From the NCBI GenBank assembly GCA_016875955.1, contig VGOH01000001.1:1-24699 (forward strand): a stretch of 24,699 nucleotides of DNA, given 5' to 3'. The stretch comes from Chloroflexota bacterium (GTDB lineage Bacteria; Chloroflexota; Dehalococcoidia; Dehalococcoidales; RBG-16-60-22). Shown here one piece after another: positions 16,826-18,942 of the stretch; within the stretch, counting starts at the first letter, position 1, and every line of letters begins with the position of its first letter. The notes below the pieces were generated by a model. That model made no database searches. It worked only from the letters and a program-made list of their open reading frames with translations, and was not told where the DNA came from. A program made the translations under genes and the position numbers.

Positions 16826-16839
16826 AATTCAGGACAAAA

Positions 16840-16928
16840 CCTTTAAGCTGGTCCGGTGAGGCTGGCAAGGAAAAGATAGAGACACCGCAAAGTTAACCTC
16901 TTGCCAGCCCCGGCAAGGGGTTATTTTT
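16840..16928 (+). promoter_or_regulatory. PyrR-binding attenuator leader RNA
   Basis: CCTTTAAGCTGGTCCGGTGAGGCTGGCAAGG matches the PyrR binding-loop pattern (CUUUAA...GUCCNGNGAGGCU...AAGG). Antiterminator pairing 16860-16869/16900-16909 is 10 bp perfect. Confidence 0.88.
16894..16928 (+). terminator. Attenuator terminator hairpin
   Basis: Stem 16894-16905/16912-16923 (12 bp with one G-U), 6-nt loop, then TTTTT ending at the pyrR ATG. Confidence 0.75.
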
Positions 16929-17537
16929 ATGGCCAGAAAAATCATCATGAACGGGGAGGACATCCGGCGCACCCTGGCGCGCATCGCCCATGAAATCATC
17001 GAGCAGAACCGGTCAATAGACCACCTGATACTGGTGGGGATGCGGACGCGGGGGGTGCCTCTGGCCAGGCGCCTCGCCGCCAATATCCAGAAATTTGAAA
17101 ATATAACTGTCCCCGTGGGCGCCCTGGACTTCAGCCTCTACCGCGATGACATTTCCCACCTGGACAAGCAGCCCGTGGTCCAGCATACCGACATCCCGGC
17201 GAGCGTTGACGGGAAATCAATCCTGCTCGTTGACGATGTGCTTTACACCGGGCGCAGCACGCGGGCGGCCATGGACGCGCTCATCGACCTCGGGCGACCT
17301 CGCCAGATTCAGCTGGCGGTGCTCATTGACCGCGGCCACCGCGAGATGCCCATCCGCCCCGACTACATCGGCAAGAACATACCCAGCGCCCGCCACGAGG
17401 AGATACAGGTACACCTTGTGGAGACCGACGGCGTTGACGAAGTGGCCATCATCAGCCACGAGCCAAATACTTCAGACCGGGACCAACGGCACCCGGTGCC
17501 TGCCGGGAAAAGGAGGGGCCATGACGTTGGCAAATAG
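16929..17537 (+). CDS. pyrR: Pyrimidine operon regulator / uracil phosphoribosyltransferase PyrR, 202 aa
   Basis: [37 protein letters not shown] motif [13 protein letters not shown], and [19 protein letters not shown]. Confidence 0.97.
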
Positions 17538-18942
17538 GAGTCTGGTGACCATTGATGACCTTTCCTGTGGCGAGATTGAAGCCCTCTTCAAGCTGGCGGA
17601 CGAGATGGCCGGGGCCATGGATGAGCAGTACGGGCTGTGCCAGGGCAAGATTATGGCCAGCCTCTTCTTTGAACCGAGCACCCGGACCAGGCTCTCCTTT
17701 GAGACGGCGATGCACCGTCTCGGCGGGAGCGTTATCACCGCCGCCGACGTGGGGGCAACCTCGCTGGCCAAGGGCGAGAGCATCGCCGATATGGCCAGGG
17801 TGGTCGGCAGCTACGTTGACATGATTGTCATCCGCCACCCCTGGGAAGGCGCGGCCAGGGTGGTGGCTGATTACGCCGGTGTGCCGGTCATCAATGCTGG
17901 CGATGGCGGTCACCAGCACCCCACCCAGACGCTGCTCGACCTCTACACCATAAATAAGGAGAAGAAGACCTTAAAAGGGCTGAAAATCGGGCTGTGGGGC
18001 GACCTGAAGTACGGGCGGACGATACACTCGCTGATTTTCGCCCTAGCCAAGTTCGGGGCCAATATACTCTTCTACCCCACCCGGGGGCTGGAGGTGCCTG
18101 AGCATGTGCTGGAAAAACTCACCACTGAATACGGCGGCGAACTGGAAAAATTTACCGCGCGTGACACAACAGCGAAAGAAAAGCTGTTCCCCCTTGATGC
18201 GGTTTACCTGACGCCGAGCAGTCCCCACCAGCTGGCCATGATGCCCGACGTAAATATCCAGGTTGAACTGAAGACGGGAATCGATGCCCTCTACGTTACC
18301 CGACCCCAGAAGGAGCGGTTCACCGCCGCCGAGAAAGGCAAAGAGCCGAAAGAGCAGTCCCCCGTGGTGGACAAGAAACTGCTCAAGGGCAAGGAGTTTA
18401 AAAAGACGCTGGTGATGCACCCGCTGCCCCGCGTTGATGAGCTGGCCCGGGAGCTTGATGCTGACCCGAGGAGCATGTACTTCAAGCAGGCGGCGCGCGG
18501 GGTACCAGTGCGGATGGCGCTAATCGCCCTGCTGCTGGGGTTGAAAGACGTGGCCATATCACCGGAAAAAACACCGCCAATTACATATCCTTTTTACCGT
18601 CGCGATTACGGCCCTAGATGCTCCAACCCGCGCTGTGTCTCGGTGCAGGGAACGGAAATCAAATATCTCCGGCCCGAATATAAAATCGTCAACCGCAGAC
18701 CGCTTACCCTGCGCTGCACGTACTGCGAACACGGCTTTGAGCCGGAATATGTCGCCAGCTCCGACTGGCACGAGGGCAAAACGGCGACCAAGAAGTATCA
18801 CAGCGCGTCAAGCCACTGGGCAAGAAAAATAAGGCCCGAGAACCTGATTGTCTTTCGCTCCAACCAGGATGCAGAGACCCTCGGCTTCAAACCAAGCCGA
18901 TATGTTAAAGTACGGCGTCGCAGAAAGGGCACGCAGCAATGA
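17521..18942 (+). CDS. pyrB: Aspartate carbamoyltransferase fused to a PyrI zinc domain and an Ada-like domain, 473 aa. Start is ATG 17521 rather than the track's 17146.
   Basis: [34 protein letters not shown], and MHPLP. C-terminal CSNPRC...RCTYC. AGGAGGGG SD at ~17511-17518. Confidence 0.93.

Follow-up and report, generated by a model that had tools for sequence, protein, structure and literature searches.

ATCase is a classic model of allosteric regulation, and the pyrB locus studied here raises the question of what an additional C-terminal domain contributes to an ATCase chain that lacks the PyrI allosteric domain. In the window, by which we mean the whole stretch of 24,699 nucleotides that was analyzed, pyrB lies in the gene order pyrR-pyrB-pyrC-carA. 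The locus is defined by two features:

16836..16930, + strand: PyrR-binding leader, RF00515 (52.1 bits against a gathering score of 54, E 5.9e-6, full model length)
17521..18942, + strand: pyrB open reading frame, 473 aa plus stop (ORF and start call; matches to TIGR00670, OTCace_N, OTCace, and PyrI_C)

The best start of pyrB is the ATG at 17521, which is preceded by GGAGG; the first 17 nt of the gene (17521-17537) overlap the end of pyrR. The pyrB stop codon (18940-18942) shares the sequence ATGA with the start of pyrC (18939-18942). The two overlaps suggest translational coupling along the operon. Since the near-threshold leader is located directly upstream of pyrR, the four genes are probably controlled by PyrR attenuation. 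The stretch from 18748 to 18942, for which the original prediction had proposed an Ada-type domain and a basic tail, is the C-terminus of the single pyrB reading frame and codes for residues 410-473. Its translation is exactly the peptide that had been quoted, running from YVASS to GFKPSRY and continuing through VRRRRK and GTQQ to the stop. The encoded protein is arranged as follows:

17521..18540, + strand: catalytic chain, residues 1-340, class-B (PyrI-dependent) type, judged by the closest solved chains
18541..18585, + strand: linker, residues 341-355, weakly conserved by column conservation
18586..18744, + strand: PyrI C-terminal zinc domain, residues 356-408 (PF02748, four Cys, fold matches)
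18745..18906, + strand: predicted ADA_N-like or "sunset" domain without a zinc site, residues 409-462, 54 aa (profile searches, hhalign, dN/dS)
within 18745..18906, + strand: DWHEG loop, residues 415-419, clade specific
18799-18801, 18811-18813, 18895-18897, and 18904-18906, + strand: former ligand columns H427, S431, S459, and V462, respectively
18907..18939, + strand: basic extension of 11 residues, 463-473 (charge, dN/dS, pLDDT)

PyrB scored 311 bits against TIGR00670 in an HMM scan, and its OTCace_N (residues 6-145), OTCace, and PyrI_C matches each exceeded their own cut-offs in a Pfam scan. The best PDB matches of the catalytic chain were the class-B chains of P. abyssi (1ml4, 273 bits), M. 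jannaschii (2rgw, 262 bits), and E. coli (237 bits); B. subtilis ATCase reached 137 bits in the same comparison. The OTCace match is split into two stretches by approximately 35 to 40 extra residues at positions ~211-252 (window ~18151-18276), and a Lys/Glu-rich loop precedes HPLP at residues 269-280 (window 18325-18360). Both the insert and the loop were modeled with pLDDT values below 50, the segments of low pLDDT in the full-length model being 214-222, 234-249, and 269-280. The fused C-terminal module could use the aspartate-domain insert and the loop as partner surfaces.

Downstream of the linker, PF02748 (PyrI_C, residues 366-407) was matched with 31.3 bits against a cut-off of 23.4. The four cysteines C367, C372, C399, and C402 are invariant in the homologs compared, and the fold resembles PyrI chains 2yww and 2be7, albeit as weak Foldseek matches. 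A short conserved linker, CEHGFEP-YVAS, connects the zinc domain to the tail. With the class-B holoenzyme (PyrB plus PyrI; E. coli, P. abyssi, and M. jannaschii), the protein shares the PyrI-dependent catalytic type and the four-Cys zinc domain. Unlike the holoenzyme, it has no allosteric nucleotide-binding domain (PF01948), and PyrB is joined directly to the zinc domain, which is itself followed by the ADA_N-like domain. It also differs from the fused PyrBI of Thermotoga (NF009916), since it scored only 94.4 bits against that model, which has a cut-off of 800.

The identity of the tail was addressed with a profile built from 24 PyrB tails only, which was searched against 1.84 billion representative proteins. 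This search yielded 652 matches at an E value of 1e-3 or less and 50 at 1e-10 or less, a resemblance to the Ada-like module that, at the level of sequence, is far beyond chance. The matches other than PyrB contain one to six copies of a YVGS.NS.KYH.P.C.WAKKIKPEN.I.F.S..EAE..GY.PC..C module, mostly with an H-C-C(-C) ligand set. These Cys-type modules were reached with E values down to 1e-30 for multicopy proteins and 1e-6 to 1e-12 for single copies, so that the tail shows the homology to zinc-type members by which the ADA_N-like group is recognized. Ada_Zn_binding was present in all 10 longer matches that were scanned against Pfam, together with SNase domains (four proteins), metallo-beta-lactamase domains (two), and DUF6233 (two). 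As predicted, the tail and the Ada-type module of nucleases and competence proteins are homologs.

To compare the zinc site, 245 domain instances were aligned to the profile. In most of them, the H427 column holds His, and the columns of S431 and S459 hold Cys. According to these alignment columns, C38, C42, C69, and C72 of Ada correspond to H427, S431, S459, and V462 of the PyrB tail. Replacement of the Cys ligands, with Ser at two of the positions, had been anticipated and was found at the C42 and C69 columns (S431 and S459). The residue at the C38 column is His in the Cys-type modules too. Degenerate HS.. variants exist outside PyrB as well, and a full Cys ligand set was found in none of the fused orthologs examined. 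The E. coli Ada N-domain (PF02805; 1eyf, 1u8b, and 1zgw) thus has a Cys4 site where the PyrB tail reads H, S, S, V; in addition, the tail lacks the methyl-acceptor Cys38 and the following HTH and is C-terminal rather than N-terminal. The family motifs KKYH, WA[RK]KI[RK]PEN, and F.S...A...GF.P are retained. Because the Cys ligands have been lost, the domain should fold without zinc.

On its own, the tail of the window remained under the thresholds of both relevant families, with 15.3 bits (E 0.021) against PF02805, for which the gathering threshold is 23, and 19.8 to 20.4 bits (E 4-6e-4) against the sunset model NF051437, for which the cut-off is 27. One ortholog cleared the latter with 28.4 bits. 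When 68 orthologous tails were compared at an E value of 0.01 or less, 57 matched NF051437 and 30 matched PF02805 (best, 1.8e-6). The only other families matched were the NCBIfam "sunset domain variant" models of L17, L20, and S2 and the Ada protein, the last by two tails. Alignment of the 68 class-wide tails to 16 canonical sunset domains by hhalign gave a probability of 97.1% and an E value of 5.9e-11. The canonical sunset domains of Dehalococcoidia (IKGN..GEKIYH.PG...Y.....F.TEEEA.AAG.R) are also without Cys at the ligand positions. In two larger Dehalococcoidia genomes, they occur as tandem pairs in single ORFs of approximately 320 to 375 aa.

It should be noted that zinc-less C-terminal ADA_N-like or sunset domains have already been described by ECOD and NCBIfam. 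In 2025, ECOD listed domains of its ADA_N-like X-group at C-termini, often with deteriorated zinc sites (PMC12353581), and the NCBIfam sunset model is Cys free. Therefore, a Cys-free module is not peculiar to PyrB. In common with the ADA_N-like and NF051437 domains, the PyrB tail has a small N-Ada fold, a position at the extreme C-terminus of a host unrelated to the others, a deteriorated zinc site, and the core motifs YH and F.[ST]..EA...G[YF]; it is Cys free and ends 11 residues before the stop. It differs from them in that the host is a metabolic enzyme, that it comes after the PyrI zinc domain, and that it adds a clade-specific WHEG loop of 6 to 7 residues. Its sequence resembles the Cys-type "WAKKIKPEN" modules more than it does the IKGN..GEKIYH.PG sunset consensus. 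No description of an ATCase-ADA_N-like fusion was found in the literature searched (Dehalococcoides ATCase and PyrI zinc-domain fusions), and a search for "sunset domain" by name returned no relevant paper.

Structure models were consistent with this assignment. An AF2 model of the last 120 residues showed pLDDT values of mostly 78 to 86 for the tail and about 61 for the loop at 414-423. The full-length model reached a pLDDT of 81 and a pTM of 0.84, with values of 82 to 90 for the zinc domain and 81 to 91 for residues 411-460; this increase is confounded by the deeper alignment used (68 sequences versus 24). The modeled tail has the small beta-sheet and short helices of the N-Ada fold that characterizes ADA_N-like domains in ECOD. 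Foldseek returned nothing at an E value of 0.001 or less. The only coherent rows were PyrI chains for the first half of the C-terminal region and N-Ada (1zgw and 1u8b) for the second, and with E values of 0.07 to 3.7, these rows were weak; homology therefore rests on the tail-profile search of the representative proteins. PDB sequences gave no match to the tail profile at an E value of 10 or less, and the ESM Atlas gave no usable match to the tail.

A homolog search restricted to residues 345-473 retrieved 462 proteins. The best 120 of these, which carry an annotated PyrI_C, are mostly full-length chains of approximately 465 to 480 aa, plus a few truncated entries; both carbamoyltransferase domains are present in all but one of the truncated entries, and the named homologs come from MAGs of Dehalococcoidales, Dehalococcoidia, and Chloroflexi. 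Among the 111 longest homologs, most tail positions from 410 to 461 are at least 90% conserved, including Y410, A412, S413, D415-W-H-E-G419, K424-K-Y-H427, S431-H-W433, K436-I437, E440-N-L-I443, F445, S447, A451, and G455-F-K-P-S459. Class-wide invariance is limited to residues of the fold core (F445, A451, Y426, N441, S447, and G455). The WHEG loop is invariant in the clade and missing from the general ADA_N-like family; deep-branching fused forms lack it and are nearer to the generic module (..AGS..T..FHKAG......N.V.FES.EQA...GYRPG). For ten close relatives without indels, the dN/dS of the tail (409-462) was 0.061, compared with 0.075 in the catalytic core, 0.118 in the zinc domain, and 0.234 in the basic extension. 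The conservation of the tail in orthologs and its dN/dS rule out read-through of a lost stop. A coupled change at positions 427 and 432 was also observed among orthologs, with HS..SHW in 39 sequences and YS..S(F/Y)M in 13. This suggests that the two residues pack together at the former zinc site, and the substitution may represent a single clade event.

The PyrI_C-plus-tail unit was identified in 63 of 301 sampled Dehalococcoidia genomes, representing 45 of 192 genera and several orders. The tail comes after the zinc domain in every examined fused gene with its 3' end inside the contig. Neither ten genomes of a family of the same order with small, single-contig genomes nor the other Chloroflexota classes sampled yielded a match to the unit. 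With an Ada profile match obtained and the tail kept across PyrB orthologs, the proposed Ada-type domain stands. Taken together, we assign a probability of roughly 85% to residues 409-462 being a genuine, selectively maintained ADA_N-like/sunset domain within a PyrB-zinc domain-tail architecture.

The PyrI allosteric domain (PF01948) was detected neither in the window's own genome, a 78.6%-complete MAG, nor in any of the 301 Dehalococcoidia genomes, while the control was positive in 7 of 14 reference genomes. No PyrI-related arrangement other than the three-part ATCase was seen in the sampled class. The tail had been proposed to stand in place of the missing allosteric domain. The absence holds, but the tail is not a positional replacement, because it is C-terminal to the zinc domain, whereas the allosteric domain is N-terminal to it. 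Genomes of the same order or class that lack the fusion encode a non-fused PyrB with an open frame of approximately 330 to 340 aa (five loci in five genomes were compared). Since these proteins are only about 40% identical to the fused form, their sequences indicate two distinct ATCase types within one order. A homolog search from a deep-branching fused form returned 17 close relatives only, and so neither an intact-Cys intermediate nor a member outside Chloroflexota was found.

The basic extension behaves differently from the domain that it follows. It comprises VRRRRK (18910-18927) and GTQQ before the stop and is disordered in the models, with pLDDT below 50. A net charge of +5 to +8 was found in 15 of 15 close relatives of the window and in 3 of 53 more distant sequences. 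Across the 68 orthologs, its length ranges from 0 to 34 residues, and its net charge is zero or negative in 20. VRRRRK, which had been noted alongside the Ada-type module, is found mainly in the close relatives of the window and was rejected as a family feature. Given this variation in charge and length, sequence comparison marks the extension as a later, lineage-specific addition.

What does the domain do? We hypothesize that the zinc domain would dock on the catalytic trimer in the manner of class-B holoenzymes and that the ADA_N-like domain would act as a protein-protein or structural module within the ATCase oligomer. It would either stabilize docking of the zinc domain or contact a neighboring chain or trimer, contacts that are normally provided by the PyrI allosteric-domain dimer, which is missing here. 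In that case, the PyrR leader would be the main means of pyrimidine control. We tentatively favor this intra-oligomer role over polyanion binding, at somewhat less than even odds. The confident full-length model, the clade-invariant WHEG loop, and the near-neutral charge of the domain in many orthologs argue weakly for it. Against it, we know of no ADA_N-like domain that mediates oligomerization, the basic motif is more than 95% kept in close relatives, and the family occurs on DNA- and RNA-handling proteins, the latter two points favoring polyanion binding. A PyrI zinc domain on its own is reported to bind the catalytic trimer and change its kinetics; a fused zinc domain would therefore be plausible as a constitutive modulator of ATCase.

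It is possible, though on balance rather unlikely, that the tail instead binds a polyanion (NTPs, RNA, or DNA) as a new regulatory or localization input replacing CTP/ATP sensing by PyrI, assisted in the lineage of the window by the poly-basic extension. Homologous modules are found on Ada, which binds DNA, on SNase nucleases, and on ComEC-like metallo-beta-lactamase proteins, NCBIfam holds sunset variants of the ribosomal proteins L17, L20, and S2, and ECOD places the domain on L4 and ComEC (PMC12353581). Conservation in close relatives is at least 95% at K424, K425, R/K435, K436, and R/K438, which match conserved basic positions of the family; the strongly charged extension of these relatives and the absence of the PyrI allosteric domain point in the same direction. 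However, the net charge of the domain averages only +1.6 across the 68 orthologs (range, -2 to +6), 20 of the 68 extensions have a neutral or acidic charge, some orthologs have no extension, and class-wide invariance does not extend beyond the fold core. ECOD describes the function of the family as undetermined (PMC12353581). The DNA contacts of Ada are R45 and R71 (PMC4437013), but their register on the tail is unreliable owing to a one-residue indel. We consider it distinctly unlikely that a class-wide, zinc-less ADA_N-like domain functionally replaces nucleotide sensing by relaying a polyanion signal through the zinc domain to the catalytic trimer. If true, ATCase would have an allosteric input of a new kind, and the sunset family would gain its first assigned function.

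Rebuilding of the old zinc site as a His-based metal site, formed by H417, H427, H432, and a carboxylate, appears improbable. The three histidines are 98 to 100% conserved in the 111 closest homologs, but wider orthologs replace H427 with Y, H432 with F or Y (13 of the 17 sequences with Y427), and W433 with M, substitutions that suggest aromatic packing rather than metal ligation, and the deep-branching forms lack the loop that carries H417 entirely. A non-functional remnant or read-through product, as might be supposed from the lost zinc ligands and the sub-threshold scores of the window's tail, is highly improbable given a dN/dS as low as that of the catalytic core, the spread across genera and orders, a stop codon fixed in the ATGA overlap with pyrC, and the confident models.

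These findings describe a widespread natural ATCase that has retained only the zinc domain of PyrI and carries a small domain of another type in addition. The genes are labeled simply "catalytic subunit" in current annotation, which hides the two extra domains. The intra-oligomer role that we tentatively favor aside, this arrangement opens two questions to study, namely the action of the zinc domain when no allosteric domain is present and the role of ADA_N-like/sunset domains, which also sit on ribosomal proteins, nucleases, and ComEC.
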